Shown here piece by piece: positions 1 to 26,747 of a DNA stretch of 32,000 nucleotides; the first letter of the stretch is position 1; each line of letters opens with the position of its first letter. The position numbers and the translations under genes are program-made. The notes under the pieces are model-generated. The model searched no databases. It had not been told where the DNA came from and was given only the letters and a program-made list of their open reading frames with translations. The DNA comes from Candidatus Iainarchaeum sp. (GTDB lineage: Archaea; Iainarchaeota; Iainarchaeia; Iainarchaeales; CSSED10-239): positions 4,841 through 36,840 of the forward strand of contig JAQVTI010000009.1 of NCBI GenBank assembly GCA_028700115.1, written 5' to 3'.

Positions 1-44
1 GGATCTTTGAAGCATGGGTTGAATCCAGTGATTTGTAGATTTAA

Positions 45-2907: not shown

Positions 2908-2919
2908 ATAAGTGATTTT

Positions 2920-4225: not shown

Positions 4226-4227
4226 TT

Positions 4228-5076: not shown

Positions 5077-5128
5077 TTGTTTAGATAGATTTATTAATTT
5101 GTAATTATATATATTTATAGTGTTGTAT

Positions 5129-5848
5129 ATGTTTAAAGGAAATATTTCAACTAATTTAAAATTTACAAATAAATTAGATAGATTAAAAAAAGAAACTATA
5201 GCTTCTAAAAAAATTACTTTTGCAAGTTATCCAAAAAAAGAAGTTGCAATTAAGTATGTTGATGCTTTTTGGAAAAGATATTTTGATGGAAGCTTAGAAA
5301 AATCTTTATCTAAAAGAAAAGATAACCATTTTATTTCTAATTATAATCCAAATGTAAAAATTTTTCCTATTTCTCCTACAGTTTCTGTAACTGTAAGAAA
5401 AATGAATTTAATAGATGTAAGACCTTATTTCGAAATTCATAAATATTATAAAGAAAAATTTAAAAATGCAAATTTTAAATATTCTAAATTTGTTTTAACA
5501 GATATAATAGATTATAAGAAAAAAGGGGATTTTTATTATGTTCTTGAAAGAATAGTTCCTTCTATTAGTGTATATGATTTTTATGTGTCAGATTTTAAGG
5601 GTTTTAAAGAAAATAGATTTTCTAAATCTTTTCAGAAAAGTTTAGAAAAAGTGGATTTATTAAAGATGAAAGAAGATTTAGGTCCAGCATTAAATGAATT
5701 AAAACATTTTATTAATAATAATTCTAAATTTAAATTTAGACTTGATAATTCTAATAATAATATTATTATAATTGATTATAATCCAGAAACACATAAATTT
5801 AAATTTGGATTAATTGATTTTGCTGGTATGAGTTCTAAAAGTTTTTAA
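5129..5848 (+). CDS. protein-kinase-like fold protein, putative (RIO/Kdo-kinase-like)
   Basis: VAIK lysine motif, LDNSNNNIIII catalytic-loop-like segment and IDFAG (DFG-like) motif. ATG 5129 preferred over GTG 5120. Confidence 0.45.
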   Translation: MFKGNISTNLKFTNKLDRLKKETIASKKITFASYPKKEVAIKYVDAFWKRYFDGSLEKSLSKRKDNHFISNYNPNVKIFPISPTVSVTVRKMNLIDVRPYFEIHKYYKEKFKNANFKYSKFVLTDIIDYKKKGDFYYVLERIVPSISVYDFYVSDFKGFKENRFSKSFQKSLEKVDLLKMKEDLGPALNELKHFINNNSKFKFRLDNSNNNIIIIDYNPETHKFKFGLIDFAGMSSKSF

Positions 5849-5952
5849 AAATAATACTATTTTTTAAGTTTTTTTTTCTTATTTTGCAAACATCTATTTA
5901 TAAATTTATTGTTACTTGTATATTTATACAACTAATAATTAGGTGAATATTT

Positions 5953-7107: not shown

Positions 7108-7176
7108 AAATCATAGAAGATTTAAGAAATTATATAATAAAAGAAAATAGTTGAAAAAATATAAAAAGAAAATAAA

Positions 7177-8529: not shown

Positions 8530-8646
8530 ATGTTTGTTTCCTTTTTTAATTTTATAAAAATAGATTGGTTTTAAATTATATATATTTTTTTCTATTAGTA
8601 TATATAATTTAAGTAAGCATTTGTTTATAAAATAAGGTTTTTAGGC

Positions 8647-9441
8647 TTATTTTCTAAGTTTCCATAATTTTTTCTTACTTCTCTTAAAACCTTCTTTTTT
8701 ATATGCAGCAACATGCATACCTCTTCCTCTTGTTTTAATTGCATTTATTTCTTCTGTAACTAATTTTTGTAAATGTTTTGTTTTTTCTTTAGGTAAGACT
8801 CCTATATTAAATAAATATGCTTCTTCTGAGTTTATTTTTCCTTGATGTATTAGATTATAAAATACTTTTTCAGAAAAAGGTTTGTTATATCCTTTATGAT
8901 GTTTTGGGTTTAGAACTTTTAATCTATCAGAAGGATATGTTTCTTTAAATATTTTAATAACTTCATTAAGTATACTTTTATTTTTCATATGTTTAAAAAA
9001 AGAACCATTTAGTCCTTGTATATTTCCTAAGATAATATGTGTTTTTTTAGATTTATCTAAAAATATATCAAAGTTAAATTTAGCAATTGCATTTTCTGTA
9101 TCTTTTGCATTATATATATTTATACTTATACCAAAAGGCTTATCTGCCCAGGTAGATAGTTTTATTTTTAGATTTTTATTTTCAAATTTGTTTTGAATTT
9201 CTAAAAATTCTTTTGAGAATGTATCTAATATGTTTACTTTTTTAGAAAGGGTATCTTTTCCAGAAACATTTTGTTTGTATGCAAGTATGTTTTGTGTATT
9301 TTTAAGAAATACATTTATATTTCTAAACCCATAATAATAAATTGCTTTTTGTAAAATAAGTTTTTGTTTATAATCTAATTTTTTAATTTCTTCTTTTTTA
9401 AGACCTATAGATAATAGTTCTTTTTGTGATATTAATTTCAT
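8647..9441 (-). CDS. hypothetical protein
   Basis: 264-aa ORF with no antisense competitor. No recognisable motif. Confidence 0.55.
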   Translation of the reverse strand: MKLISQKELLSIGLKKEEIKKLDYKQKLILQKAIYYYGFRNINVFLKNTQNILAYKQNVSGKDTLSKKVNILDTFSKEFLEIQNKFENKNLKIKLSTWADKPFGISINIYNAKDTENAIAKFNFDIFLDKSKKTHIILGNIQGLNGSFFKHMKNKSILNEVIKIFKETYPSDRLKVLNPKHHKGYNKPFSEKVFYNLIHQGKINSEEAYLFNIGVLPKEKTKHLQKLVTEEINAIKTRGRGMHVAAYKKEGFKRSKKKLWKLRK

Positions 9442-9485
9442 TTTTTTTCTCTTTGTAATTTATAAAATAAATAAAAAAGAAGAAA

Positions 9486-10907
9486 TTATTTCTTCTTTGT
9501 GAAAAATTCAATAGCAACTTCTAGTTCTTTATGTGTTTTTGCATATTCTTCAATTGAAATTCCTTTTTTATATGCCTCACATGCCTGAACTAAAGCCATT
9601 GCTCCTTCTTTTGTACCATTTGGATGAGCATGACAACCTGCACCCATAGTTGTAATAAAGTCAACTCCACCCATAACATCAATAAATGGTTTTAATAAAG
9701 TAGGGTTAAGTCCTCCTGAAACAATAGGTGTACATTTTTTTACACCTCTCCATTCATCTTCATCTAAGATAGCTTTGTGTGCATGATCTTTTTCTACATT
9801 TTCAATAAAATCTAAATCTTTTTCAGATATTTTACCCCAAGATTGATCAAAGAAAAATCCTTTTCCATATAAATCTAATATGTTTTTAGCAGCAGTGATG
9901 TCTGATTTAGGAGTTCCATCCATTTTTCCAACTCCAGCAGTTCCTGTATGTATCCCAGAAGCTCCTGCAAGTCTTGCAAATTTAGATAAAACTAAAACTG
10001 AAAATCCAAAATCATTTTCTGGTCTTGTAAAAGCACCGTGAGCTGCTCTATGGAAATGTATAAAAACATCAGGATATCTTCTTCTTAGAGTTTGAACAGC
10101 CATCCATCCTGCAGTAATCCCATCTATTAAAAATGCATATGAACCTTTTTCAAATCCTGCATTTTCAATCATTTCACATCTTTTAATCATTGTGTCAAAA
10201 TCTGCAGCTGAAACATTAAAAGAGTGTACTTTTTTCTTTCCAGTCTCTTTTACTGCCTTTTCCATTGCGTTTTTTACATGTTTTACCATTTTATCGTATG
10301 GACAGAAGTCTTGGTCTGCTTGAGGCTCATCGTTTTTAACAAAGTCTCCTCCACCAACCCAGAAGTCATAACAAACTTCTGCATATTCTGCTGAAGTTAG
10401 TCCCATTTTTGGCTTTACAATTGTTCCTAGAATAGGTCTATTATAAACATCTAAGTATTTTCTCATATCATCAATTGTGTATGATGGTCCATCAAATTGT
10501 TCTAGCATAGAAGGAGGAAACCATAAGTCTAAAAGTTTAAGAGCAGAAACTTCTTTCATACCTAAAACATTTCCTACAATGTAAGTTAGTATATTTTGTA
10601 CATTTCCAACTCTATCAAAAAGTCTCCATGGATATGCAATCCATACAAGTTCTTTTTCTTGATCTAAGTCATAAACTAAAGCATTCATTTCTCTTGAGAA
10701 TGCAGTTTCTGTTTGTACTTTAAAATTAGTCCCAGTTGAAGACTCAGCTGCAATTTCTGCTGCTGCTTGTAAGACATTTAGTCCTTTACCTTCTTTCATT
10801 CTAAAAACACAAAGAAGATATTCTCCATTTTTTGTGTTTGGTATATTAAAATTAACATAGGCTTTTTGTTTTTCATTTAAAGTTTCATATAATTCATTTT
10901 TATTCAT
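9486..10907 (-). CDS. rbcL: RuBisCO large subunit, form II/III-like
   Basis: GGGDFVKNDEPQ (carbamyl-Lys motif in the KNDE variant of form II and II/III enzymes), HFHRAAHG, GIHTGT and VSGGLNP. No small-subunit gene nearby. Confidence 0.9.
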   Translation of the reverse strand: MNKNELYETLNEKQKAYVNFNIPNTKNGEYLLCVFRMKEGKGLNVLQAAAEIAAESSTGTNFKVQTETAFSREMNALVYDLDQEKELVWIAYPWRLFDRVGNVQNILTYIVGNVLGMKEVSALKLLDLWFPPSMLEQFDGPSYTIDDMRKYLDVYNRPILGTIVKPKMGLTSAEYAEVCYDFWVGGGDFVKNDEPQADQDFCPYDKMVKHVKNAMEKAVKETGKKKVHSFNVSAADFDTMIKRCEMIENAGFEKGSYAFLIDGITAGWMAVQTLRRRYPDVFIHFHRAAHGAFTRPENDFGFSVLVLSKFARLAGASGIHTGTAGVGKMDGTPKSDITAAKNILDLYGKGFFFDQSWGKISEKDLDFIENVEKDHAHKAILDEDEWRGVKKCTPIVSGGLNPTLLKPFIDVMGGVDFITTMGAGCHAHPNGTKEGAMALVQACEAYKKGISIEEYAKTHKELEVAIEFFTKKK

Positions 10908-10974
10908 ATTAATTACTCCTTTATAATTTAAATATTATATTTATTATAAAAGATAAATAGATTTATATGGATTA

Positions 10975-11250
10975 TTATTCTTCAATTTTTATAGCTTTTC
11001 CATTAACTATAGAATCAGTAACTTTTTTTCTAGCCTCAAGTAAAAGTCTATGAAAAGTAGGTTGTGAAATCTCCATTTCCTTTGCACATTCTTCTTGTGC
11101 TTTTCCTAAGAAGTCTTTAAGTCTTAATGCTTCAATTTCTTCTTTTTTAAGATCTACTTGTTCTAGTTCTCTTTTAGAAATTCCAGCAGGTTTAAAGTAT
11201 TTTACATCAGTTTCAAAACAAATTCTTCTTTTTTTTCTAGGTCTTGGCAT
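10975..11250 (-). CDS. DUF134 (UPF0251) family predicted DNA-binding protein
   Basis: N-terminal MPRPRKKRRI...YFKP and C-terminal sigma-70 region-4-like HTH (MEISQPTFHRLL). Confidence 0.8.
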   Translation of the reverse strand: MPRPRKKRRICFETDVKYFKPAGISKRELEQVDLKKEEIEALRLKDFLGKAQEECAKEMEISQPTFHRLLLEARKKVTDSIVNGKAIKIEE

Positions 11251-11273
11251 ATTTTCTCATATTTTTTTCAAGT

Positions 11274-11618
11274 TTAATGATCACAGCTTTGTTTAATGTC
11301 TTTTAAGTAATCTATATTTTCAATAACTTCTTTTAGAATATTAAAATTTTCTGTTTTTAGTAAAATACTAGTTTTTGAAAATAAATCAATTGCTTTTTTT
11401 CCTATACCTTTTGTAAAAACTGCATCTATGTCTAGTTCTTGTATTTGTTCAACTGGTGTTTTTTCTTTAGAATGATCTATTATGTTTGGAATTATTTCTA
11501 AATTTTTAGAATCTGTAGAATATATTGCAAAAAAAGAACAATTTCCAAAATGTTCACTTAGTTTTGAGTCTAAGTTTTTATTTTCATCTAAAGCAATTAG
11601 TATTTTCATATTTTTCAA
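11274..11618 (-). CDS. NifB/NifX-type (dinitrogenase FeMo-cofactor biosynthesis domain) small protein
   Basis: KILIALDEN...LSEHFGNCSFFAIYS matches the HFG..xFxiy core of this domain family. Confidence 0.7.
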   Translation of the reverse strand: MKNMKILIALDENKNLDSKLSEHFGNCSFFAIYSTDSKNLEIIPNIIDHSKEKTPVEQIQELDIDAVFTKGIGKKAIDLFSKTSILLKTENFNILKEVIENIDYLKDIKQSCDH

Positions 11619-11703
11619 ATATTTAATTTATATAAATATATATTCGTTAAAAACGTTTTTATGTGTTTTTATTAAAAGTTTTTTTAAAAGAAAAGGCTAC
11701 TAT

Positions 11704-11847
11704 TTATATAGTAGCTCTTCTTCTAAGTCCTCTTCCTCTTCCAAGACCTCTATTTTCTTGATTTGTATTATTATCATTGCATTTTCCTTGTTTTCTTCCA
11801 GTCATTGGACCTTTTCCATCAGGACCTGTTCTATCTTGATTTGGCAT
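11704..11847 (-). CDS. DUF5320-like small Gly/Arg-rich protein (absent from the supplied ORF track)
   Basis: Hand translation gives 47 aa: MPNQDRTGPDGKGPMTGRKQGKCNDNNTNQENRGLGRGRGLRRRATI. GGAGG lies 7 nt upstream of the ATG. The MPxxDxTGPxGxGPMTGR start is the family signature. Confidence 0.65.
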   Translation of the reverse strand: MPNQDRTGPDGKGPMTGRKQGKCNDNNTNQENRGLGRGRGLRRRATI

Positions 11848-12076
11848 ATTAATTCCTCCTTTTATTGAATTTATATTCATATTGTGTTTGGAACAATTTA
11901 TAAATGTATTGAATATATATTCAATTTATTTTATAAACTTATAAACTAAAAAATATAAAATAATCTTTATTCTTTTTATAAATTTTATGTAAAACCAAAC
12001 CCCTTTTAATGATATTTGTTCTAATTATCTAAGTTTATGCTTATTTTAAACAAAAATATTAATAGGAGAGAAAATT

Positions 12077-12667
12077 ATGAGTGTTGAGAAAAATAATTGG
12101 GTAGAAATTGAATACGAAGGAAGTTTTGATGATGGAAAAGTATTTGATACAAACAAAGGTAAAGATCCTCTTAAATTTAGAATAGGAAGCAGAATGGTTA
12201 TTCCTGGATTTGAAAATGCAGTAATTGGTATGAAAGAAGGAGAAGAAAAAGAAGTTAAACTTACTCCTGGTGAAGCATATGGTCCAAAAAACGAAGAAGT
12301 TGTAGATTTACCAAAATCAGCTTTTGCTTCTCTAGAAGGTCTAGAAGAAGGAAAAGAACTTGAAATCATGACAAACATGGGTCCTATGTTAATTGAAGTT
12401 AAAAAATTAGAAGAAGAAAACATAAAAGCTGTTTTAAATCATCCTATGGCTGGTAAAAATTTAAATTTTAAAATTAAATTAATTAGAGTTTTACCAGAAG
12501 AAGAAGCTAAAAAAGAAGATGAATTATTTGCTCAAAGAATAAAAGATATGCAAGAGCAAATGGCAAAAGCTCAAGAAGAACATAACCATGAAGGATGCGA
12601 TTGTGGAGATGATTCTTGTAATGATGAATCATGTTCATGTGAAGATAAGGAAGAAAAGAAAGAATAA
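12077..12667 (+). CDS. slyD: FKBP-type peptidyl-prolyl cis-trans isomerase, SlyD-like
   Basis: VEIEYEGSFDDGKVFDTN...IPGFENAVIGMKEGEEKEV...AYGP FKBP core with an inserted flap segment. Acidic Cys/His-rich tail HNHEGCDCGDDSCNDESCSCED. Confidence 0.9.
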   Translation: MSVEKNNWVEIEYEGSFDDGKVFDTNKGKDPLKFRIGSRMVIPGFENAVIGMKEGEEKEVKLTPGEAYGPKNEEVVDLPKSAFASLEGLEEGKELEIMTNMGPMLIEVKKLEEENIKAVLNHPMAGKNLNFKIKLIRVLPEEEAKKEDELFAQRIKDMQEQMAKAQEEHNHEGCDCGDDSCNDESCSCEDKEEKKE

Positions 12668-12705
12668 TTTCTTTCTTTTTTTATATTTTTTTATAAGTGA
12701 TTTTT

Positions 12706-12864
12706 ATGAAAGTTTATGTGTGTTATCATATTATGAGGGATAAAAAATCATTTACAATAGATTTAGTTACTAGTTCTAAGAAAAAAGCAGACGAATGGTT
12801 TAAAGAAAACGATCCATATCTTTGGAGTGATGCAAAGATAGAGGAACATGAAGTTACTGAATAA
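12706..12864 (+). CDS. small hypothetical protein (52 aa)
   Basis: ATG-initiated ORF MKVYVCYHIMRDKKSFTIDLVTSSKKKADEWFKENDPYLWSDAKIEEHEVTE, not in the track. No family recognised. Confidence 0.25.
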   Translation: MKVYVCYHIMRDKKSFTIDLVTSSKKKADEWFKENDPYLWSDAKIEEHEVTE

Positions 12865-12954
12865 CTTCATTTAATATTTTTCTATTTTTAATAGTTTACG
12901 TTATAACGTTAACTTTTAATGAATAGTTAACGGTATACTGTTAACTTTTATGTG

Positions 12955-13009
12955 AATAATTCCTTTTCGTATTGAGTAAATTTTAATTATTTTCCCTTTG
13001 CCAAAAGGA
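12955..13009. repeat. 55-bp direct repeat, copy 1 (ends 35 nt upstream of the AAA ATPase ATG)
   Basis: aataattccttttcgtattgagtaaattttaattattttccctttgccaaaagga. 50/55 identical to 14312-14366. Confidence 0.9.
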
Positions 13010-13044
13010 ATATATTTATATATGTTTTTATATATAATTTTAAT

Positions 13045-14304
13045 ATGGATAAAGATTATTTAGAAAGAATAATTTTAGATCAGTCTGAAGATCTTAAACA
13101 AATAGATTTAGGTTTACCTAGAGATAAACTTTTAGATTTAGATACTCAAATTAAATCAAAAATAAATATAATAATTACAGGTGTTAGGCGTTGTGGTAAA
13201 TCTACTTTATTATTACAAATAATGAATAAATATTATAAAAATAAATTTTATTATTTAAGATTTGCAGATGAAAGACTTTCAGATATAAAAATAGATGATT
13301 ATCAAAAAATATATGAAATATTTCAATCAAATTTTAATATGAATAATATATTTTTTTTTGATGAAATACAAGGTAAACCTAATTGGGATAAATTTGTTAA
13401 TAGATTGTATGAAACTGGAAATAAATTTTATATAACTGGATCAAATTCAGAATTATTAAGTAAAGAAATATCTACTTATCTTACAGGAAGACATTTAGAT
13501 GTTGAATTATATCCTTTTTCTTTTAAAGAATATTTAAATTTTAAAAAGATTAATTTAGATTATAGATATTCAAAAAATTTAATAAAAATAGAAAAAGAAC
13601 TAAATAACTATATAAAAATAGGTGGTTTTCCACAAGTTGTTGTTGAAAATAATTTAGTATTACTTGAAGAAATATATGAAGATATAATTAATAAAGATAT
13701 TTTATTAAGATATAATTTAAATGATGTAGCTATTTTTAAAAAAATAGCATTATTTTTAATATCAAATATATCAAAAGAATTTTCATATAATTCTATTAAG
13801 AAAATGTACGATATAGGTAATTCTGATACTGTTAGAAATTATGTTTATTATCTTAAAAATGCTTATTTATTATTTGAATTACCTAAATATGACTATTCTT
13901 TGAAAAAACAAGAAAGTTATTCTAAAAAGATTTATGCTATAGATACTGGTTTAATAAATAAGTTGGCTTTTTCTTTTTCTGAGAATATAGGTCGGCTTTA
14001 TGAAAATTTAGTTTTTATAGAATTAAAAAGAAGAAATAAAAGGATATATTTTTGGAAAGATAAATCTAATTATGAAATAGATTTTATAATTTTAGAAAAA
14101 AATAAAGTGACTTCTTTAATACAAGTTGTATATGATTTAAGTGATTTAAAAACAAAAGAAAGAGAAATAAGAGGCTTAATTTCTGGTTTAAAAGAATTTA
14201 AGCTTAAAGAAGGTATAATAATTACAAAAGATTTAGACAAAAAAGAAAAAATAGATAATTTAACTATAAAATATATACCTTTATGGAAATGGTTATTAGA
14301 ATAA
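13045..14304 (+). CDS. AAA+ ATPase with DUF4143-type C-terminal domain (COG1373-like)
   Basis: Walker A GVRRCGKST and Walker B FFFDEIQ. Length and C-terminal layout are typical of this family. Confidence 0.85.
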   Translation: MDKDYLERIILDQSEDLKQIDLGLPRDKLLDLDTQIKSKINIIITGVRRCGKSTLLLQIMNKYYKNKFYYLRFADERLSDIKIDDYQKIYEIFQSNFNMNNIFFFDEIQGKPNWDKFVNRLYETGNKFYITGSNSELLSKEISTYLTGRHLDVELYPFSFKEYLNFKKINLDYRYSKNLIKIEKELNNYIKIGGFPQVVVENNLVLLEEIYEDIINKDILLRYNLNDVAIFKKIALFLISNISKEFSYNSIKKMYDIGNSDTVRNYVYYLKNAYLLFELPKYDYSLKKQESYSKKIYAIDTGLINKLAFSFSENIGRLYENLVFIELKRRNKRIYFWKDKSNYEIDFIILEKNKVTSLIQVVYDLSDLKTKEREIRGLISGLKEFKLKEGIIITKDLDKKEKIDNLTIKYIPLWKWLLE

Positions 14305-14311
14305 TTTTTTA

Positions 14312-14366
14312 AATAATTCCTTTTGGTATTGAGTAAATATTAGATATTTTCCCTTTGCTAAAAGGA
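14312..14366. repeat. 55-bp direct repeat, copy 2 (starts 7 nt after the AAA ATPase stop)
   Basis: aataattccttttggtattgagtaaatattagatattttccctttgctaaaagga. Same orientation as copy 1. Confidence 0.9.
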
Positions 14367-14549
14367 TAATTTTATTCATTGGTATTGAACAAATTTCTTG
14401 TTTTTGTTCATTTTAAATGAACAAATCTTTTATTTTTAATTTGTATATTTATTTTAGAATCCTTTTTTTTAATTTTTTCTAAAATAAACCTATTTTTAAA
14501 TATTCTTTGTTTCTATATTATATATATTATATATTATGGAGGACTATAT

Positions 14550-16415: not shown

Positions 16416-17345
16416 TTATTGTTGTTTATTATAAACTTTAACTATTTTTTTATAAAATTTACACATTTCCATAAATTGATTAGGATTTGTCTTTTCTAAA
16501 AATTTGCACCCTCCTTTACAGTAATTCCATATTTCGCAATTTTTATTTAAACATATATTAATATTATTTATTTTTTTTAGATTATATTTTTTATACATTG
16601 TTAATAAATGACATCTATCATAACTACCATCTGGAAATATTCCATAAGTTGTATTTTCATAATAACCACAAAATTTATTTTTATTTAATTTATTATCTAA
16701 ATAATTAAAAAAATAATTTGAAAATGGGGATATTTTTATATTTTTTTTATGAAGTGAAAGTATGTATTCTATATCTTTAATAGTTATTCTTTTTATAGAA
16801 TTTATATTGGAAAAATTAAATCCTATGTAATTTGGATTTAATTTTAATAAATTAATTATATTCTTTTTAAAATTAATTTTTGTAGATATTGTGGATGATA
16901 TTTGTAATTGTATCCCTCCTTTTTTAATTAATTTAGCATTTGTTATAAGTTTTTTTATATTGGTTGATCTATTTTTTAAATTAGTTTCAATAGGGTCAAT
17001 ACTTATAGTTATATTTTTAATACCCCAATTTTTAAGTTTTTTAATTGTATTTTTGTTAATTAAAGTTCCATTTGTAATTATATTAAAATTGTAAATACCT
17101 AGTAATTTTAATCTTATTATAATTTTTTTAATGTTTTTTAAGTCTAATAAAGGTTCTCCACCATAAAAAATAATTGTAGAATCCGATCTATATTTTTTTG
17201 GAACTAATAAGTTAATAGAATTTATAATATTATTTATGTCAAATGCATTTTTTTTATTTAATAAATTAATTTTTTTTAAATAACAATATTTACAATTTAA
17301 GTTACAATTATATGTAGTTATTATAAATAATTTATATTTTTTCAT
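16416..17345 (-). CDS. radical SAM enzyme with SPASM-like C-terminus
   Basis: CNLNCKYC, YGGEPLL and ITNGTLI motifs. C-terminal CLNKNCEIWNYCKGGC. 4-nt overlap with the upstream gene. Confidence 0.8.
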   Translation of the reverse strand: MKKYKLFIITTYNCNLNCKYCYLKKINLLNKKNAFDINNIINSINLLVPKKYRSDSTIIFYGGEPLLDLKNIKKIIIRLKLLGIYNFNIITNGTLINKNTIKKLKNWGIKNITISIDPIETNLKNRSTNIKKLITNAKLIKKGGIQLQISSTISTKINFKKNIINLLKLNPNYIGFNFSNINSIKRITIKDIEYILSLHKKNIKISPFSNYFFNYLDNKLNKNKFCGYYENTTYGIFPDGSYDRCHLLTMYKKYNLKKINNINICLNKNCEIWNYCKGGCKFLEKTNPNQFMEMCKFYKKIVKVYNKQQ

Positions 17346-17779
17346 AATTCTTCTAAAATATTAATGGTTTTTTCTAAATTATAATTTATAAATAAATTAT
17401 CTCTTTTATTTTTATAATTTTTTATTAATTTATTTATATTATCGTTAATTAATATTGGATCACAATTTAGAAATAATAATTTTTTACAGTTATTATAAAA
17501 ATATGTGGTTAACAATAAATTATCTAGTATGTTATAATTTATTTTAACAAAAGTATTTACCGATAAAGGATAAATTAAAATTAAATTTGGTTTTGGAATT
17601 GAATTAATATTACTCCATTCTATTTTTCTATTTTTTAAAAATTTGAATTTATTTAAATTAAATAAATTATATGAATTATTTGAAATACAATAATATACTT
17701 TATTTTTTTTAAGGATATTGTTAATTTTATCTAAATTCAATATATTTTGACCAGCACAAACTAAAACATATATAATCAT
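17342..17779 (-). CDS. divergent flavoprotein-family (HFCD/EpiD/Dfp-N-like) homolog, putative
   Basis: LILIYPLSVNTFVKINYNILDNLLLT aligns by eye with the (P)ASANT..KiAnGiaDnLLt core of the Flavoprotein family. The N-terminal IIYVLVCAGQN strand-loop is degenerate. Confidence 0.4.
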   Translation of the reverse strand: MIIYVLVCAGQNILNLDKINNILKKNKVYYCISNNSYNLFNLNKFKFLKNRKIEWSNINSIPKPNLILIYPLSVNTFVKINYNILDNLLLTTYFYNNCKKLLFLNCDPILINDNINKLIKNYKNKRDNLFINYNLEKTINILEEL

Positions 17780-18108
17780 AAATTATCAATTGTAATGGTT
17801 TTTTTATTAAAATCAATTATTAATTTTTTATTATTTTTAAACAAATTTATATTATCTACTTTTATTAAAAATATTTTTTTTTCTCTAGCAAATATACTCA
17901 TGTGACTTAAATAACTTCCATTTTCAATAATTCCCCCTAATGAATAAAGTAAATATGGAGAATCCATAGGGGTTAGGGATTTAGAAATTAGAATTTTATC
18001 TTTAATTTTATTTAAATTTGTATTATTTTTTAAAATCAAAGATTTTCCAGAAATTATTTTTGTCATATTAGATTTACTTAATATTTCAAATTTAATTTTA
18101 TTTATCAT
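17776..18108 (-). CDS. stand-alone PEP-utilizing-enzyme mobile (swivel) domain protein, divergent
   Basis: ILISKSLTPMDSPYLLYSLGGIIENGSYLSHMSIFAREKKIFLI keeps the spacing and the SH...AR core of the swivel-domain His motif. Confidence 0.7.
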   Translation of the reverse strand: MINKIKFEILSKSNMTKIISGKSLILKNNTNLNKIKDKILISKSLTPMDSPYLLYSLGGIIENGSYLSHMSIFAREKKIFLIKVDNINLFKNNKKLIIDFNKKTITIDNL

Positions 18109-18111
18109 TTA

Positions 18112-18993
18112 TTATTCCTCTAAAAGATATTTTATGAAGTTATGTGTATTTTTAATTACTTTTGTTTTATTTTCAATAAATATACTTGCATCTTTATCAG
18201 TATCTACATTTAAATATTTGTTTACATCTAAAATATATTTATTTTTTAAATTAATATGAGTTGTGAATTGGTTATAAACATAATTAACTTTATCTTTATT
18301 TAATTTTAATTTTATATTTTTTTTAAGATTTATTAAATGTAGTGATAATTCATTTATTAATTTATTTGGATTTATGGTTTTATTATTTTTCATAATTAAA
18401 AAATCATTTATTTCTTCTACTTTAAATATATGTCCAAAAAAGCTAATATCTGGTTTTTTTATATAATTACTTATTAAAATATATTTTTGATTATTAATAT
18501 TATATTCTCTATATAATTTCCCATTAAATGTGTATATGTTAAATCCAACTCCTCTAAAAATTGGAAAATAAATTTCATTTAAATTATCTAATAAAAATAC
18601 TGTAGAATAATATAATTCTCTATTTTTAATAAATCTACCTAATTTTAAGTCTTTATTTGGATTTAATTTTAAATCCATTGTTTTTTCTAATGTTATGTCT
18701 TCATATTTATCAATTAAATAAGTTATTATTTTTTTAAAATATTTTTTTTGTGTAATTTTATTTGTTTTTTTATTTATTAACATTAGTAAATATGATCTTA
18801 ATTCAAAAAAAGAAATATTTGATATATTATTATCAATATAATCTTTAAGATATGGTGTGAAATTTTCTGCGAATATATTAGAAATTATGGTTGATGATAA
18901 TGGCCAATTATGAATTGTAGAACCAGATATACATAGATAAAACATATCTTTACTTATTTTATTACAAATTTTATTTATTAATTTCTTTTCCAT
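18112..18993 (-). CDS. hypothetical protein, family X (paralog of 3218..4225)
   Basis: ATG 18993 (MEKKLINKICNKISKD...) preferred, 1 nt after the upstream stop. Shares C(N/K)KI(S/A)KD...WP(L/F) and FFGH motifs with the locus-A ORF. Confidence 0.6.
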   Translation of the reverse strand: MEKKLINKICNKISKDMFYLCISGSTIHNWPLSSTIISNIFAENFTPYLKDYIDNNISNISFFELRSYLLMLINKKTNKITQKKYFKKIITYLIDKYEDITLEKTMDLKLNPNKDLKLGRFIKNRELYYSTVFLLDNLNEIYFPIFRGVGFNIYTFNGKLYREYNINNQKYILISNYIKKPDISFFGHIFKVEEINDFLIMKNNKTINPNKLINELSLHLINLKKNIKLKLNKDKVNYVYNQFTTHINLKNKYILDVNKYLNVDTDKDASIFIENKTKVIKNTHNFIKYLLEE

Positions 18994-18994
18994 G

Positions 18995-19561
18995 TTATTC
19001 TGCCTTATATTTAAGTAATATATATTTATTTTCTTTAAAATAAATTTCAACACCAATATTTATTAAATCTATTGCCCTTATAGGTAATAAATTTTCACAT
19101 AAAATTTTATTTTTGTAATTATTAGATAAATTTTGCCAATAATTATTTATAAATTTATTATATTCTAAATTACTTAATTTTTTCTTAATTTTATTTAGGA
19201 TTTCAGTTTCTTTTTTTTTATTAATTGAAATTATATGATAAAAAATACCTTTGTCTTTTAATAATGATTTACATTTTTTAATAAATTTTATGCCATTATT
19301 TTTGAAATATATATCATTAAATAAATTTACTGAATATATTATATCATATTTTGTTTTATTAAAATTATATTTTAAAAAATCTGATTTTATATAATGTATT
19401 TTTTTTGTTTTTAAATTATTTATTTGAATTAAATCTAATAAAGTTATTTTATGGCCTTTATTTAATAATTTTAAATAGTTTTTATTGTTATTAACCCCTA
19501 TTTCTAATATATTTAAATTTAAAGTACTTGAAATATCATTATATATAATATCATATAACAT
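18995..19561 (-). CDS. class I SAM-dependent methyltransferase, putative
   Basis: Degenerate motif I ILEIGVNNN, an acidic residue after beta-2 (TLLD), YDIIYSVNLF and LLKDKGIFY are in the order expected for Rossmann methyltransferases. Confidence 0.5.
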   Translation of the reverse strand: MLYDIIYNDISSTLNLNILEIGVNNNKNYLKLLNKGHKITLLDLIQINNLKTKKIHYIKSDFLKYNFNKTKYDIIYSVNLFNDIYFKNNGIKFIKKCKSLLKDKGIFYHIISINKKKETEILNKIKKKLSNLEYNKFINNYWQNLSNNYKNKILCENLLPIRAIDLINIGVEIYFKENKYILLKYKAE

Positions 19562-20696
19562 ATTTATCTTTTATTTTTATGATTTTGTTAAATAATTTAT
19601 TGGTTACCGTACATAAAGGATCTGATCCTAAAAGTTCTTGTGCATAGATACAACCTCCATATCTTGCACACAAAGAATTATTTTTCAAATAACAATTTTT
19701 ACAATCGTTTATTTTATAAGAATTATATAATTTGTTTTTTATATTATATATTTCTTTTAAATCATTAATAAACTTTATATTTCCTAATTTATGTTTTTCT
19801 AAACCTACAAATCTATTACATAAGTAAATGTCTCCATTATTATTAATACCTAACATATTATCTTTAGTAATACAACTAGTAGTAAATCTACAATTAGGTA
19901 AAGGCATATTAAAAAAAATAGCATCAATATAACTATCAAAATCTTTTATAGTAATTTTTTTATTTTCTAAATAATAGTTAAAACAATCGTATAAGAATTG
20001 CACATATTTATTAACTAAATTATTATCTACAATATTTTTTCCTCTTCCTACTGGATACATTAAATTTATTTGTAAATCTACATTTAAATTATTATAAAAA
20101 TCTATGTAATTTATAGGTTTTATTTTGTTTACAGTAAAATTATTTAATGTAGATAATACATTAAATTTATTCTTATTTTTTTTAAGTATATTAATACCTC
20201 TTATAACTTGATTAAAAGAACTAAAATCATTTTTATTAACTCTATATTTGTCATTAATAAATTTTGGTCCATCTAAACTTACCCCTATAGCAAAATTATT
20301 TTTTTTAAAAAATTTAGAATAATCTTCATCTATTAAAGTTCCATTTGTTTGAATTTTATTTACAAAATGAATATTTTTTGGGAATATATCTTTTTGTAAA
20401 TCAATTATATTTTTATAAAAATCTAACCCAGCTAAAAGTGGTTCTCCTCCATGCCAGGCATATTCTAAAGTTAGAAATCGCGGATTATATTTTTTGACTT
20501 TATTTATATCTTTTTTAGAATATATTGAATTTATATAATCTAAATTTTTATAAAATTCATTAATAGTTAAATTAAATATTTTTTTAATTACATCTATAGA
20601 TATTAAATCATATTTTTGATTGTATGAACCGTATGTATAACAATATTTACAATTTAAATTGCATGCATTTCCAACAGGTCTTATTGAATATCCCAT
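19551..20696 (-). CDS. radical SAM/SPASM enzyme (anSME / peptide-maturase-like)
   Basis: CNLNCKYCY at residues 12-20, WHGGEPLL, IQTNGTLI and VSLDGP motifs. C-terminal Cys-rich CKNCYLKNNSLCARYGGC plus upstream Cys. Confidence 0.85.
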   Translation of the reverse strand: MGYSIRPVGNACNLNCKYCYTYGSYNQKYDLISIDVIKKIFNLTINEFYKNLDYINSIYSKKDINKVKKYNPRFLTLEYAWHGGEPLLAGLDFYKNIIDLQKDIFPKNIHFVNKIQTNGTLIDEDYSKFFKKNNFAIGVSLDGPKFINDKYRVNKNDFSSFNQVIRGINILKKNKNKFNVLSTLNNFTVNKIKPINYIDFYNNLNVDLQINLMYPVGRGKNIVDNNLVNKYVQFLYDCFNYYLENKKITIKDFDSYIDAIFFNMPLPNCRFTTSCITKDNMLGINNNGDIYLCNRFVGLEKHKLGNIKFINDLKEIYNIKNKLYNSYKINDCKNCYLKNNSLCARYGGCIYAQELLGSDPLCTVTNKLFNKIIKIKDKYVI

Positions 20697-20704
20697 ATTA
20701 TTTT

Positions 20705-20851
20705 TTAATATCCATCTACATATTCATCAGCACCGTGTGCTGTTTTTCTAACTAAATCAAAATAGATATTGTCTTTATCTAATTTATTTTTTTTAAGTAA
20801 TTCATAATTTTTAAACCTACATTTTATTGCATTTGATTCAATTTTAGCCAT
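20705..20851 (-). CDS. 48-aa leading small ORF, candidate precursor peptide (absent from ORF track)
   Basis: Hand translation: MAKIESNAIKCRFKNYELLKKNKLDKDNIYFDLVRKTAHGADEYVDGY. AGGAGG lies 9 nt upstream of the ATG. The stop is 8 nt before the radical SAM/SPASM ATG. It is the first gene of the locus-B operon. Confidence 0.45.
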   Translation of the reverse strand: MAKIESNAIKCRFKNYELLKKNKLDKDNIYFDLVRKTAHGADEYVDGY

Positions 20852-20934
20852 AAATTGATTCCTCCTAAATGTTTTTATTAGTATACATAAGGTTTTTATA
20901 TGTTTCTTTTAAATTTTATTACTTTTTCAATTAA

Positions 20935-21612
20935 TTTTTTAGTTTCTGGATCATTATAAAAATCAGAAACACAAAGGCAGATATTATTAATTTAGTTAGA
21001 GTAGAAACACCTGAAATACCAGAACCTGCTTTAAGGGAATCAATATTAAATGCAATGATTCATAGAAATTATTTTATTCAAGGAAGAATATTAATAGAAA
21101 TTTATGAAAATAGAGTGGAAATATTAAATCCTGGAAAACTATTATTTGATCCAAAAGAATTTGGTAAAGTAAGTGTTTCAAGAAATCCTATATTAGCAGA
21201 TTGTATATTAAGAACTAGTTTGATAGAAAAGATAGGTTCTGGTGTTAAAAGAATTAGAAAATTAGTTCCAAATGTTAAGTTTAATATAGATACAGATTGG
21301 TTTAGTGTTATATTTAAAAGAGATATATCTACTAAAGTGGATAGTAAAGTAAGTGTGGATGCCGGTATAAATGCACCTGTAAATGCACCTGTAAATGCAC
21401 CTGTAAATGCACCTGTAAAATTAAATAATTTACAATTAAACATTATAACAGAAATACGAAAAAATAAAAATATAACTTATGATGATTTAAGTAATATATT
21501 TTCTATACATAGAACTACAATTATGAGAAATATTTCTAAATTAAAGAAATCAGGAATATTAGAAAGAATTGGATCTGATAAAACAGGATTTTGGAAAGTA
21601 AATAAAATTTAA
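20935..21612 (+). pseudogene. 5'-truncated remnant of a RecG-like (HATPase_c_4 + C-terminal wHTH) putative transcriptional regulator
   Basis: The frame is open from 20935 with no start until M at 21055. ALRESILNAMIHRNY...NPG...SRNPILADCILRTSLIEKIGSGVKRI matches the C-terminal half of this family. The N-terminal AlbA_2-type half is missing. Confidence 0.6.
21369..21416 (+). repeat. perfect 12-bp x4 tandem repeat (aaatgcacctgt) encoding (NAPV)4
   Basis: Read directly. Lies in the linker before the C-terminal wHTH of the truncated regulator. Confidence 0.95.
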
Positions 21613-22227: not shown

Positions 22228-22835
22228 TTATAATAATATTAACTTACCATAATCTGTTAAAGAAAGATTTCCATTAATTTCATTAACTAGACCTTTTTCT
22301 TTAAAATCTCTTATGTTATTATAAACTGCAGTTCTTCCTAGTTTTTTATTATTTGAATTTGCAAGTTCTGAAAGAGTTATTTTCTTTTTAGAAATAGTAC
22401 TTAATAGATCATATGCATTTTTATTAATCTCAAAAGAAAGTTTAGGAATTGAAATCATTTTATTTATTTCTTGAGTAAAATATAATATTTCTTTTATTTT
22501 ATTACTTCTTGCATAACAACCAAGCATAATACCAATAGACTTTGTTTTTCTTCCAGAAGTAATATCTCTATATATATTTCATTAATATCTTCATTATATA
22601 CTTTATCTATTTCTTTAATAATTTCCTTTGCGATTTCATAAACTTCATAAACAGAAGTTTTAATTTCTTTAAATTTAATATGTTTAAATGTGTTTTTTAG
22701 TTTTTCTTTAGCTTCTTTTTGATGTTCATCTGGTTTTTTGTCTATTATTAGATAAATCTCTTCAGGATTTATCTTTGTAATAGCTCCAACCATTGGAGTA
22801 AAAGAATATGTGTTTGTGAATAATATTTTTTTCAT
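22228..22835 (-). pseudogene. Csa3-like (Rossmann/CARF-like N-domain + C-terminal wHTH) regulator, frameshifted
   Basis: The 113-aa and 99-aa ORFs overlap in different frames. The second frame upstream of its Met reads NIYRDITSGRKTKSIGIMLGCYA (DxTxGxK-type loop). The switch falls in the tatatata run at about 22566-22578. Confidence 0.45.
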
Positions 22836-22860
22836 ATTAAATCTTTTTTAAATTATATTT

Positions 22861-22952
22861 TAATTGGTAACTATATTGTATTTTAATTGGTAACTATATT
22901 GTATTTTAATTGGTAACTATATTGTATTTTAATTGGTAACTATATTGTATTT
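22861..22952. repeat. four perfect tandem copies of a 23-bp unit (taattggtaactatattgtattt)
   Basis: Copies at 22861, 22884, 22907 and 22930, plus a partial fifth (taattaat) at 22953. Located 25 nt upstream of the minus-strand ATG at 22835. Confidence 0.95.
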
Positions 22953-23016
22953 TAATTAATAGTAATTGTTTTTAAAAAAGTATTTATTTTTGTAAAAAAA
23001 TACATTTTTTTAAGAA

Positions 23017-23715: not shown

Positions 23716-26700
23716 ATGAATAATAAGAATATAAATAATAGTCATTTTCCAAAAATACTATTATCTTTAAGTTTAATCTTTTTCTTTTTATTATCATTTG
23801 GGAATGTATTTGCTGCACCAACAATTACTGTAGATACATTAACTACAAATGATCAAACTCCTGAATTAACAGGAGATATTAGTTTAGATGGAGAATCAAT
23901 TACAAGTATGCAATTAATTTTAGATGGTGTTACTTATGGAGATTCTTCTATTACTAGAACTACAACTACTTGGACATTAGCAGATAATGTGATTACATCT
24001 AATTTATCTGAAGCTACTTATGATGTTGCTGTGCAAATGAACACAAGTGTAACTGGATCTGTAACTGATTCTACATCTGATGAATTAGTAATTGATACAA
24101 CTGCACCTACAGTTTCTATTACATTAAGTGATTATGCTTTAATTGTAGGTGAAACATCAACTGTAACTTTTACATTTAGTGAAGCTCCAATTGGATTTAC
24201 ATCTGATGATGTTATCTTAACAGATGCAAATGGAACTATTGGAGAAATTACAAATGAGGGTTTAGTTTATTCAGGTACTTTTACTCCTACAGATGATTTA
24301 GAAGATGCTGAAAATGTAATTACTGTTGGAACTTCTTGGACTGATGCAGCTGGAAATTCACCAATCGGAACTACAGATTCTTCAAATTATGAAATTGATA
24401 CACAAAAGAACCTACATTATCTATTACATTAAGTGATTATGCTTTAATTGTAGGTGAAACATCAGTTGTAACTTTTACATTTAGTGAAGCTCCAACTGAT
24501 TTTACTGTAGATGATGTAACAATAATTGATAATGGAATTTTATCTGATTTTGCTGTTAATGGTGTAGATTCTAAAATCTATACTGCTACTTTTACTCCTG
24601 CAGATGATTTAGAAGATGCAACAAATATTATTACTGTTGGAACTTCTTGGACTGATGCAGCTGGAAATTCACCAATCGGAACTACAGATTCTTCAAATTA
24701 TAAAATTGATACAAAAGAACCTGTTATTTCTGAAGTTACAGCTGTAGTTACTCCTACAAATGATTCTACTCCTGAATACACTTTTACTACAAGTGAAGTA
24801 GGAAATATGTCATTTACTGGAGGGTGTTCAACTTCAGATACAATTAGTGCTACTGGAGATGCAACAATTACATTTGCTGCATTATCTGATGGAACATATG
24901 ATTGTAACTTAATTGTAACTGATGCAGCTGGAAATGCATCTAATATTTTAAATATAAGTGAATTTACTATTGATGCTACAAGTCCAACATATGAAATTTT
25001 ATATTCAAATAATGGACCTGTAAAATCTGGAGATTCTGTAACTATTACAGCTGAGTTTAATGAAGATGTTAAAGACTCATCTGTTCCACAAATTGAATTA
25101 TCTGGAGATGCTACTGGATTTGATGCTATTAATATGACTAAAACAGATTCAAATACTTATACTTATGTTTGGACTGTTGGAACAGGAGATGGAAATTTAA
25201 TTCCTACTGTCACAGTTGCTGAAGATTTAGTAGGAAATGTTATAACTGAAACAGGATCTACAAAAACTCAAATTGAAGTAGATAATACTTTGCCAACTTT
25301 AAGTTCTGTTACAATTGAATCTAATAATTCAAATACAGCTTATGCAAAAGTTGGAGATGTAGTAACTTTAAGTTTTACTGCAAGTGAAAATTTACAAACA
25401 CCTACTGTTACAATTGCAGGTTATTCTGTGGGTGCAATTTTATCTGAAGGCAGTTATATTGCAGAATATACTTTAGTTTCTGGAGATGCTGAAGGAATTA
25501 TTTCTTTTACAATAGATTTTACAGATACTGCTGGAAATGAAGGTAGTCAAGTAACAACTACTACTAATGAATCTAGTGTTACTTTTGATAAAACTATACC
25601 AATTATCTCAAGTGTTGTTTTAGGTTCTGATGAATATATTAATTCTGATGAAACTACTAGTGGTATAAATATTTTAGTAAATACAACAGGTGTTGAAGAT
25701 TCTCAAACTGTGACTTGTGAATTAACAGATGGAACTACAACTATTTCAAAAATTGGAAGTGTTTCTAGTAATACTGTTACAATTGCAAGTGGTGTTTTAA
25801 CATCATTAAATGATGGAACAATTACAGTAACTTGTGATGTTTCTGATATTTCTGGAAATGCTGCAACTTCTGAAAGTAATACAGCTACAAAAGATACAGT
25901 TGCACCAACTTTAGTTTCTGCAGAAAAAGTTTCTGAAACAGGAATTGAATTAACTTTATCTGAAACAATTACAGATAATGATTCAAATCCAACTGATTTT
26001 ACAGTAACTGATTCACAAGATAATACATTTACTGTAACTAGTCAATCAAATACAGATGGAACAACTATTTTGTTAACAGTTAATTCAATGCATACATCTA
26101 TTGGAGATTTAACTGTAACTTATACAAATAATAATTCAGAAGTAGAAGATTTAGCAGGAAATGATTTAGCAACTGATTCAACTGGAGTTGTTGCTTCAAG
26201 TGTAAATTATTTATCATTTGTTGAAGGTTGGAATTATTTTGCACTTCCAAAAGATACTGAAGATAATACAATTTCTGCTATGTTTAATACAAATCTAGAA
26301 AATATAGAAGTTATTTACAAATATGATTCTGTAAATGAACAATATGTTGCAATGGATAATTCAGACGAATTAGAACTTTTAGAGGGATATATTATAAAAA
26401 CAACATCTGCATTTGATGAAGAAGTTGTTTATGAATTAGATTCTGCATTATATTCTGGAGAATATAGAACTTTAGTTCCTGGAACTTGGAATTTAGTTGG
26501 AAATACTTCTTTAGAAAATAGATCTAGAATGTCATATATTTTGAATTCTTGTGAAAGTACTGTTTCTGAAGATAATCTTTGGGATATGACTGTTCATTAT
26601 AATGAAGCTGGCCAATATGGATTTATACAAAATATACTTTCTTCTTATAATGTAGATTTAATGGATTCATTCTGGGTATATGTTCCAACTTTACCAGATT

Positions 26701-26747
26701 ATCAATCTTGTACAATGCTTTTAAATAGATTAGAGGTTGAAGAATAA
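23716..26747 (+). pseudogene. large secreted surface protein with Ig-like repeats, interrupted by a frameshift at about 24400-24404
   Basis: Signal peptide MNNKN...LSFGNVFA-AP. Repeated TAPTVSITLSDYALIVGETS.VTFTFSEAP...DAAGN modules. The frame of ORF 24807..26747 is open back to 24408 and continues the repeat (EPTLSITLSDYALIVGETSVV...). Confidence 0.7.
24115..24722 (+). repeat. two tandem copies of a roughly 303-bp (101-aa) coding repeat
   Basis: tctattacattaagtgattatgctttaattgtaggtgaaacatca occurs at 24115 and 24420. The last ~75 nt of the two copies differ at a single position. Confidence 0.85.

Follow-up and report, generated by a model that had tools for sequence, protein, structure and literature searches.

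The window analysed here, a stretch of 32,000 nucleotides from contig JAQVTI010000009.1 of a Candidatus Iainarchaeum assembly (GCA_028700115.1), contains a compact operon of seven genes at positions 16416-20851, all of them on the minus strand. Iainarchaeum is a DPANN lineage of the kingdom Nanobdellati, and an earlier note, made from the sequence alone, had proposed that this operon could specify an undescribed pathway for a RiPP, a peptide made on the ribosome and modified after translation. All seven genes that it had described are present, and no gap or overlap between neighbors exceeds 11 nt. The first is an open reading frame (ORF) of 48 aa (MAKIESNAIKCRFKNYELLKKNKLDKDNIYFDLVRKTAHGADEYVDGY; 20705-20851), followed by a radical SAM/SPASM protein of 381 aa that we refer to as rSAM1 (19551-20696), a class I methyltransferase-like protein of 188 aa (18995-19561), a protein of 293 aa designated X (18112-18993), a stand-alone phosphoenolpyruvate (PEP)-utilizer swivel protein of 110 aa (17776-18108), a short flavoprotein of 145 aa (17342-17779), and rSAM2, a second radical SAM protein of 309 aa with a seven-cysteine SPASM-like C-terminus (16416-17345). 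In this order the junctions are an 8-nt gap, an 11-nt overlap, a 1-nt gap, a 3-nt gap and two 4-nt overlaps. A ribosome-binding site (AGGAGG, 20861-20866) lies 9 nt before the ATG of the 48-aa ORF, and the ATG start of X is backed both by alignment with its homologues and by the NCBI gene call.

Pfam reproduces the domain assignments first made by eye, with matches in rSAM1 to radical SAM (PF04055, 47.9 bits) and SPASM (PF13186, 23.4 bits), in the methyltransferase-like protein to PF08241 (24.7 bits, cut-off 21.2), in the swivel protein to PF00391 (33 bits), and in the flavoprotein to PF02441 (24.0 bits, which is borderline against the cut-off of 22.7); X has no match. The assignment of rSAM2 as a radical SAM/SPASM protein stands in part, since PF04055 is matched with 70.4 bits but Pfam does not call a SPASM domain, and the seven-cysteine pattern (C-x18-C ... 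C-x4-C-x5-C-x3-C ... C) is read from the sequence by eye. None of the operon products reaches the cut-off of any curated NCBIfam family, and with all family scores below cut-off the core genes fit no known cofactor, lipid or glycan pathway. The earlier note had named such a fit, and the lack of a conserved small ORF at homologous loci, as the outcomes that would speak against its proposal; neither of them was seen. The exact proteins are present at NCBI in the metagenome-assembled genome GCA_028691725.1 under generic names only ('radical SAM protein', 'PEP-utilizing enzyme', 'flavoprotein' and 'hypothetical protein'), and independent assemblies and samples contain the locus with complete or 97% identity. 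We also considered a known anti-phage defence system and rejected it, as PADLOC gave only a weak match for the methyltransferase and a generic radical SAM likeness to pVip, with 38 and 62 bits.

The small ORF and its neighbors recur at five independent loci, the window and four others designated L002, L009, L014 and L019; the homologous contigs are mostly short, 1-14 kb. L002 contains a 40-aa ORF, a radical SAM/SPASM gene and X, and the contig ends before the position of the swivel gene. L009 (with L010) has a 48-aa ORF and L014 a 54-aa ORF, each followed by radical SAM/SPASM, X and swivel genes, and L019 has a small ORF, a radical SAM/SPASM gene, X, a flavoprotein, a second radical SAM, a swivel gene and a fusion of a PPDK_N domain with a swivel domain. 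The four-gene core of small ORF, radical SAM/SPASM, X and swivel is thus found together in the window, L009, L014 and L019, and at all five loci the small ORF lies immediately upstream of the rSAM1 orthologue. The gene set thus recurs in unrelated metagenomes with the small ORF conserved, which is more than would be expected by chance. L019 (positions 1-14448) is the richest version of the cluster, with three stand-alone swivel genes besides the fusion, two more unknown proteins, a protein of 791 aa whose N-terminus is hydrophobic, an HExxH-containing ORF of 128 aa, a GNAT acetyltransferase, and a third radical SAM/SPASM protein of 444 aa. A protein with weak likeness to DUF5700 and another with a PKD domain are common to L019 and L009.

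Comparison of the small ORFs reveals an invariant C-terminal Y-x-D-x-Y within the consensus [D/E]-Y-x-D-[G/K/R]-Y-stop; their C-termini are GADEYVDGY in the window, GDEYVDKY in L002, EDEYADKY in L009, GQDYSDRY in L014 and GIDYIDKY in L019. The similarity between the window and L009 peptides extends into the leader residues (46% identity, E 1e-10). When all of the fetched loci (approximately 250 kb) were scanned from stop to stop in six frames for ORFs of at least 20 codons, the only ones of the 5033 found that end in Y-x-D-x-Y were the small ORFs of these five loci. Because the loci range from 22 to 41% GC and the identities among their X proteins extend from approximately 49% down to approximately 25%, the motif cannot be put down to AT-richness or to close kinship. 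Searching 5.8 billion proteins with a profile of the five peptides recovers only 4 clusters; the precursor system is therefore rare, and the putative precursor family is new, matching no listed family. It is likely that rSAM1 acts on the small ORF as its substrate. The [D/E]-Y-x-D-x-Y-COOH terminus provides a specific pattern for genome mining, and marks a seven-residue core for heterologous testing.

The rSAM1 protein has the generic features of the maturase class, a radical SAM core with CX3CX2C at residues 12-19 and a SPASM domain, and because this motif begins at residue 12 there is no room for an N-terminal RiPP recognition element (RRE) domain. Its orthologues in L002, L009, L014 and L019 are related with E values of 1e-123 to 6e-39. 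In NCBIfam the models for the anaerobic sulfatase-maturating enzyme (anSME) and for DynA are the top matches of all five proteins, the window rSAM1 scoring 188 bits with anSME (TIGR03942, cut-off 349) and 163 bits with DynA (NF041298, cut-off 450), and the four orthologues 150-217 and 153-220 bits respectively. The next matches are to YhhB, GrrM/OscB, AmcB, XyeB and FxsB, and then to PapB and DarE/DarW; the cyclophane models among them (XyeB, YhhB, GrrM/OscB, FxsB and AmcB) score 66-144 bits, below cut-offs of 310-450. Among PDB sequences the best match is the anSME 4k37 (E 3.5e-33), followed by CteB and the triceptide synthase ChlB. By these comparisons rSAM1 represents a distinct family within a SPASM clade whose enzymes remove a hydrogen from a peptide, either at a side chain or at C-alpha. 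Most of the characterized members of that clade form a short cross-link, and in darobactin and dynobactin the cross-links join residues i and i+2. The Y-x-D motif that is invariant in the precursors resembles aromatic-X-X, and it is on aromatic-X-X motifs, a native YDR motif included, that triceptide synthases act (PMC11499958). Our best guess is that the invariant Y-x-D-x-Y would accommodate one or two three-residue cross-links.

The swivel protein has a predicted phospho-acceptor, His69, in GSYLSHMSIFARE, which aligns with His189 of Enzyme I. This histidine is invariant in 12/12 of the stand-alone swivel proteins of X loci, and the surrounding GGxLSHxAIxxRE is conserved. In nine of the 11 independent loci for which there is downstream sequence, the swivel gene adjoins or overlaps that of X; in L019 they lie two genes apart, and in L013 no swivel gene was seen in what is merely 360 bp after X. 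The X family itself is small. A word-indexed protein search with X returned a single 97% twin, while HMMER, applied exhaustively to 1.84 billion cluster representatives, yielded approximately 26 representatives, mostly of 270-305 aa; one further X locus was found among GTDB genomes and two in JGI metagenomes, and a search of IMG/VR gave none. The family is characterized by the motifs WPISS, PIFRGxGF (in which Pro144 is invariant and Arg147 is present in at least 90%) and FGH..PE, which are conserved across organisms of 20-58% GC.

There is no match to X in Pfam, NCBIfam, PADLOC or PDB sequences, nor in profile searches of Pfam and the PDB. An AlphaFold2 model built from a 22-sequence alignment (predicted local distance difference test, pLDDT, 92.7; predicted template-modelling score, pTM, 0.91) is confident; it begins with a bundle of helices, continues with an antiparallel sheet of five strands and closes with further helices at the C-terminus. 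Foldseek comparison of this model gave no match in the PDB (best E 0.04, TM <0.2) or among the viral folds of BFVD. We considered whether X could be a diverged ATP-grasp PPDK_N or another known partner domain of swivel proteins, and rejected this, since comparison with PPDK_N by hhalign gave a probability of 0.15% and the Foldseek and profile searches were empty. A PPDK_N domain of the ATP-grasp type is nonetheless encoded within a few genes of X in three independent loci; L012 and L025 have it as a stand-alone protein, whereas in L019 it is part of a fusion with another swivel domain. X and the swivel protein probably form a phospho-relay. That this relay acts on the small-ORF peptide is plausible but leans towards the doubtful, and the more specific assignment of a tyrosine hydroxyl as the phosphoryl acceptor is unlikely to prove correct.

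Not all of the X loci have a peptide. X and swivel genes are present without a nearby radical SAM gene or Y-x-D-x-Y ORF in L011, where they are found among ribosomal-protein genes, in L012 and L025, and in the short L003 and L004, with the order in L003 being X, swivel, swivel and X-paralogue. X and swivel thus constitute a general module, and the peptide-linked loci represent one of its uses. L012 (5552-10030, 32% GC) and L025 (10001-13831, 49% GC) are independent contigs with a common conserved neighborhood, in which X, swivel and a CN-hydrolase-like protein of approximately 352 aa are on one strand and PRAI and stand-alone PPDK_N genes on the other, with AMP-binding, epimerase, pyridoxal phosphate (PLP)-decarboxylase and GHMP-kinase genes nearby; it looks like a small-molecule use of the module.

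The window contains a second cluster of a similar kind and different composition, which we refer to as Locus A (45-5848, plus strand). Its genes are, in order, an 83-aa ORF (45-296), a radical SAM/SPASM protein of 334 aa, a thiamine pyrophosphate (TPP)-dependent enzyme of 542 aa, a stand-alone swivel protein of 104 aa (2920-3234), a distant 340-aa paralogue of X (3203-4225; E 3.5e-14 with the X profile), a MoaA/HxsC-like radical SAM protein of 282 aa and an unknown protein of 242 aa. The window therefore has two pairs of swivel and X-family genes in its 32 kb, and both pairs belong to radical SAM operons. The 83-aa ORF bears some likeness by eye to a PqqD-like RRE domain, but it has no match in Pfam or NCBIfam, and we do not claim this assignment.

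The flavoprotein was described in the earlier note as similar to the homo-oligomeric flavin-containing Cys decarboxylases (HFCD), and this is accurate at the domain level. A profile of three orthologues finds EpiD (1g5q) first in the PDB (E 5e-5), and the PASANT-like motif is kept as PLSVNT. However, the catalytic His67 of EpiD aligns with Asn57, a residue that does not vary among the orthologues of the window, L018 and L019; PxMNxxMW is shortened, deleted or degenerate, and the protein ends near EpiD residue 140-150, before the substrate clamp. As the precursor peptides moreover all end in tyrosine and none in cysteine, canonical cysteine decarboxylation is unlikely. The flavoprotein can thus be placed in the HFCD superfamily by domain, and the catalytic histidine and clamp that define the peptidyl-cysteine decarboxylases are lacking from its sequence. 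A single-sequence AlphaFold2 model (pLDDT 49.5) was too poor for use.

The flavoprotein is also found with X and swivel in L018, in the order X, swivel, flavoprotein, and in L019, where the second radical SAM protein is a full-length orthologue of rSAM2 (E 1.7e-20) encoded directly after the flavoprotein gene. In both the window and L019 the flavoprotein gene directly precedes and overlaps that of rSAM2, and because the two are adjacent in both of the loci that have them we read them as a probable functional pair. The NCBIfam matches of rSAM2 are generic and sub-threshold, including one to the AF0577 family of 57 bits over its full length. The only homologue found for the methyltransferase-like protein is in the 97%-identical contig L001, so this gene appears to be specific to the lineage of the window; its SAM-binding motif I is degenerate (ILEIGVNNN). 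Methyltransferase-domain genes were also seen near X in L021, L025 and L009.

The overall GC content of the window is 22%, and that of the operon is 16.5% as compared with 23.2% in the remainder, consistent with the observation in the earlier note that the operon is richer in A/T and in Asn, Lys and Ile than backbone genes such as rbcL and serS. These three residues make up 38-48% of the six enzyme products and 31% of the 48-aa peptide, as compared with 20-27% of the rbcL and serS products. However, GC content at third codon positions (GC3) is the same in the operon (0.07-0.10) as in backbone genes (0.06-0.14), so that the AT excess sits at the level of amino acids and does not reflect foreign codon usage. 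The note had offered either acquisition or fast evolution as an explanation; given the native GC3, the composition lends no support to recent horizontal acquisition and fits fast or relaxed evolution of what may be weakly constrained proteins under strong AT mutation pressure. A scan for sigma-70 promoters and terminators was uninformative, with 63 sites as against 63.5 expected in shuffled sequences; the organism is an archaeon.

Taking these features together, we consider it somewhat probable that the locus is a previously undescribed RiPP-type maturation operon of a DPANN archaeon, a reading in which we infer each of the chemical steps from genomes. The recurrence of a conserved small ORF with the radical SAM/SPASM gene and X at five independent loci, with an invariant terminus, lends genomic support to the RiPP logic that the earlier note had seen in the window. 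In such a pathway the 48-aa ORF would be the precursor, with its N-terminal 40 or so residues serving as a leader and approximately the last seven, x-[D/E]-Y-x-D-x-Y-COOH, as the core. The rSAM1 enzyme, as a member of the anSME/DynA/cyclophane-synthase clade without an RRE, would abstract a hydrogen in the core and join the residues i, i+2 and i+4 of Y-x-D-x-Y by one or two short cross-links, for example from a Tyr ring to the Asp C-beta as in three-residue cyclophanes. X and swivel, coupled in translation, would together be a module of two proteins within a split phosphotransferase of the dikinase type, in which the swivel histidine would be charged by an ATP-grasp PPDK_N, encoded in cis in some loci and presumably elsewhere in this genome, and X would be an acceptor-binding domain of new fold at which the phosphoryl group would pass to a hydroxyl or carboxylate of the peptide. 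Of the possible acceptors, the phenol of a conserved tyrosine would be the most attractive candidate. Phenylphosphate synthase, which is a split PEP-synthase-like enzyme, transfers a phosphoryl group from a phospho-histidine to a phenolic hydroxyl (PMC7500099), and it is this precedent that makes the conserved tyrosines attractive by analogy. The flavoprotein and rSAM2 would be a recurrent accessory unit, either for a second radical modification, which may include a flavin-dependent half-reaction, or with the flavin mononucleotide (FMN) protein acting as a dedicated electron donor, and the methyltransferase-like gene would be a lineage-specific extra.

A more far-reaching version can be formulated, although we regard it as rather doubtful as a whole. 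X, swivel and a detachable PPDK_N would be a new three-component dikinase, with a fold of X that is absent from solved structures, wired in DPANN archaea to a new radical SAM/SPASM maturase, and together they would turn a precursor ending in [D/E]YxDxY into a cross-linked heptapeptide that is Tyr-phosphorylated or phospho-activated, the first RiPP class with a phosphohistidine relay. Under that version the product could also be a peptide-derived cofactor or a host-interaction factor of a symbiotic archaeon.

Several observations do not sit easily with a RiPP-type maturation operon of the kind proposed. The operon has no peptidase, transporter or immunity gene, the family is tiny, with only four precursor clusters, and most of the contigs are short. 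X has no recognizable nucleotide-, phosphate- or peptide-binding fold, and its His188 is replaced by Arg in a clade that includes L014. No PPDK_N or other obvious phosphoryl donor was found in the 32-kb window, either by tblastn or by Pfam analysis of the larger ORFs (274-26747), so that the phospho-relay is incomplete as seen here. The X and swivel pairs that lack a radical SAM gene and a peptide likewise indicate that the substrate of X need not be a peptide. One alternative follows the logic of pyrroloquinoline quinone (PQQ) and mycofactocin, in which the peptide is a disposable scaffold for a small molecule or cofactor; rSAM1 would cross-link acidic and Tyr residues, the flavoprotein and rSAM2 would oxidize or rearrange them, a protease encoded elsewhere would free a small redox-active or signalling molecule originating from the C-terminal residues, and phosphorylation by X and swivel would be a step of activation or a handle. 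MftA has a C-terminal Tyr and PqqA has a Glu and a Tyr, and the small ORFs resemble both in that the very C-terminal Tyr is invariant and acidic residues are conserved. The presence of a flavoprotein and a second radical SAM enzyme, the lack of a transporter or immunity gene, the weakly DUF5700-like putative peptidase of both L009 and L019, the HExxH motif in a small ORF of L019, and the retention of a costly seven-gene operon in a reduced genome are all in keeping with such a product. However, rSAM1 scores only approximately 47 bits with the mycofactocin (MftC) model, as against a cut-off of 265, and is far from PqqE too; there is no RRE partner in the operon, the E/D-to-Y spacing is unlike that of PqqA, and there is no candidate cofactor-dependent dehydrogenase nearby. 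The flavoprotein and rSAM2 are moreover absent from L009 and L014, and are thus not part of the core. We regard a peptide-derived cofactor as unlikely.

It could also be argued that two unrelated modules have come to lie side by side, with X and swivel acting as an autonomous small-molecule phosphotransferase or a regulatory relay, and the small ORF and rSAM1 as a minimal RiPP pair. The occurrence of X and swivel on their own in L011, L012, L025 and L003/L004 is what this predicts, the neighbors in L012 and L025 (AMP-binding, epimerase, PLP-decarboxylase, GHMP-kinase and CN-hydrolase-like) suggest small-molecule chemistry, and the second swivel and X-paralogue pair of the window adjoins a TPP enzyme. 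But both of the X-family pairs of the window sit in radical SAM/SPASM operons, and five lineages whose X proteins are down to 25% identity still keep the order peptide, rSAM1, X, with the genes near-abutting or overlapping; such tight and repeated linkage is hard to explain without a common substrate or pathway, and we find this alternative quite improbable. In a further alternative rSAM1 would be an anSME or another maturase of a full-length enzyme encoded elsewhere, with the 48-aa ORF being incidental or regulatory. An anSME is the top match of the window rSAM1 in both NCBIfam (TIGR03942, 188 bits) and the PDB (4k37, E 3.5e-33), in each case over the full length. The score is however far below the equivalog cut-off of 349, DynA scores equally or better with three of the four orthologues from other loci, there is no sulfatase gene in the window, and the small ORF, which is conserved and does not vary at its terminus, has no C/S-x-P/A-x-R sulfatase motif, all of which make this a very improbable explanation. 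A decaying, non-functional region in an AT-biased genome, with drifting ORFs and relic domain matches, would account for the very low scores of the flavoprotein (24 bits), methyltransferase (24.7 bits) and swivel (33 bits), for the extreme composition (Asn, Lys and Ile up to 48%), and for the degenerate methyltransferase motif I and lost catalytic histidine of the flavoprotein. It can scarcely be credited given that all seven ORFs are intact and tightly coupled, that the locus is identical or 97% identical across independent assemblies and samples, that CX3CX2C and the SPASM cysteines, the swivel histidine and the X motifs are kept across 20-58% GC, and that X folds at a pLDDT of 92.7 in AlphaFold2. 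We therefore favor the RiPP-type maturation operon, at the level of confidence given above.

Elsewhere in the window there are several features that do not involve the operon. A 23-bp unit (ATTGTATTTTAATTGGTAACTAT) is repeated 4.6 times with 98% identity in an intergenic position (22852-22957) just upstream of an HFX_2341_N/Csa3_N-like gene, and these repeats could be regulator binding sites or iterons. The HFX_2341_N-like gene (22228-22835, minus strand) is split into overlapping ORFs of 99 and 113 aa, while in a sister assembly (L022, 2284-2889) it is a single ORF of 201 aa, suggesting a frameshift or an assembly difference in the window. A perfect 12-bp repeat present in 4.3 copies (21368-21419) encodes NAPV repeats in a 185-aa helix-turn-helix protein (21055-21612), and a 311-bp repeat in 2.1 copies (24090-24722) extends across ORFs for Ig-like (Big_12/Big_13) surface proteins that are apparently fragmented (23716-24432 and 24807-26747). 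A RuBisCO large-subunit gene adjoins genes for small DUF134 and Nitro_FeMo-Co (NifX-like) proteins (9486-10907 and 11274-11618, both minus strand); DPANN RuBisCO is typical of a nucleotide-salvage pathway.

The discovery of RiPPs has been almost entirely bacterial, and the biosynthetic capacity of DPANN archaea is regarded as minimal. To find in such a genome a conserved operon of several enzymes for peptide maturation, with possibly two in 32 kb, would suggest that these archaea invest in specialized peptide chemistry, and the product could serve in host interaction or be a cofactor that is otherwise unobtainable. The X-swivel pair points to an unrecognized design in which separate small proteins would make up a phosphotransferase of the PEP-synthase type, with a substrate-binding subunit of new fold, and is of interest both for enzyme evolution and as a handle for genome mining. 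The earlier note saw a phosphohistidine swivel module as foreign to the RiPP classes. Full-text searches of the library that could be searched found no paper linking RiPPs or radical SAM enzymes with PEP-utilizing proteins, swivel proteins or PEP synthases, and none of the papers found on DPANN, RiPPs and radical SAM enzymes describes such a cluster, judged by title and abstract.

A comparison with characterized systems shows that the operon has partial counterparts in several of them. The operons for mycofactocin (MftA/B/C) and PQQ (PqqA/D/E) also begin with a small precursor with Tyr and acidic residues and a SPASM radical SAM protein; Tyr and acidic residues are critical in both precursors, and the mycofactocin pathway includes flavin-dependent and methyltransferase tailoring. 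They differ in that the MftC score is so low (approximately 47 bits versus 265) and PqqE is not among the matches listed for the rSAM1 proteins, that no RRE or PqqD-type partner is detected among the operon products by Pfam or NCBIfam, and that the motif and spacing depart from GVY-COOH and E-x3-Y. With EpiD/LanD the flavoprotein shares the PLSVNT motif, an N-terminal beta-alpha unit of the flavin-binding type and a location in a peptide-modification operon, but it has an Asn at the position of His67, mimicking the inactive EpiD H67N, its PxMNxxMW is deleted or degenerate, it has no substrate clamp, and the precursors have no C-terminal Cys. Phosphorylation of a RiPP may have a precedent in the paeninodin-type lasso peptides, in which an HPr-kinase-like kinase, of a kind drawn from the PTS and carbohydrate phosphotransfer, phosphorylates a hydroxyl of the C-terminal residue. 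The operon differs from these in having a swivel phospho-His relay in place of an HprK-like P-loop kinase and in having no lasso cyclase or B-protein genes, and phosphorylation would here be a predicted step.

The X-swivel module is closest to the split dikinases of the PEP-synthase type (phenylphosphate synthase with its Pps alpha, beta and gamma subunits, rifampin phosphotransferase, and PigC), with which it has in common a PF00391 swivel with an invariant phospho-His, the use of separate polypeptides, and a PPDK_N nearby in three X loci. X is nonetheless unlike the PEP/pyruvate TIM barrel, the rifampin-binding domain and PPDK_N in both sequence and fold, the window has no PPDK_N, and the proposed substrate is a ribosomal peptide. 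The nearest counterparts of the small ORF and rSAM1 are the dynobactin, darobactin and triceptide systems (DynA, DarE, XyeB, YhhB, GrrM/OscB and ChlB), which also have a short precursor gene directly upstream of a SPASM maturase. DarE- and DynA-type enzymes are without an RRE domain, as is rSAM1, and Y-x-D-x-Y resembles the darobactin pattern of i, i+2 and i+4. The putative core is a short motif in which an aromatic residue has its partner at the second position away (Y-x-D and D-x-Y), resembling the aromatic-X-X motif of triceptides (PMC11499958). The operon differs from the dynobactin and triceptide systems in its scores far below the cut-offs, its strictly C-terminal [D/E]YxDxY and its archaeal host, and four of its components are foreign to those systems, namely X, the phosphohistidine swivel, the HFCD-like flavoprotein that lacks the His, and the second radical SAM enzyme. 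The RiPP-type logic of a radical SAM-SPASM enzyme and its precursor is thus already known, while the X-swivel module and the family of putative precursors are, judged by sequence, new.

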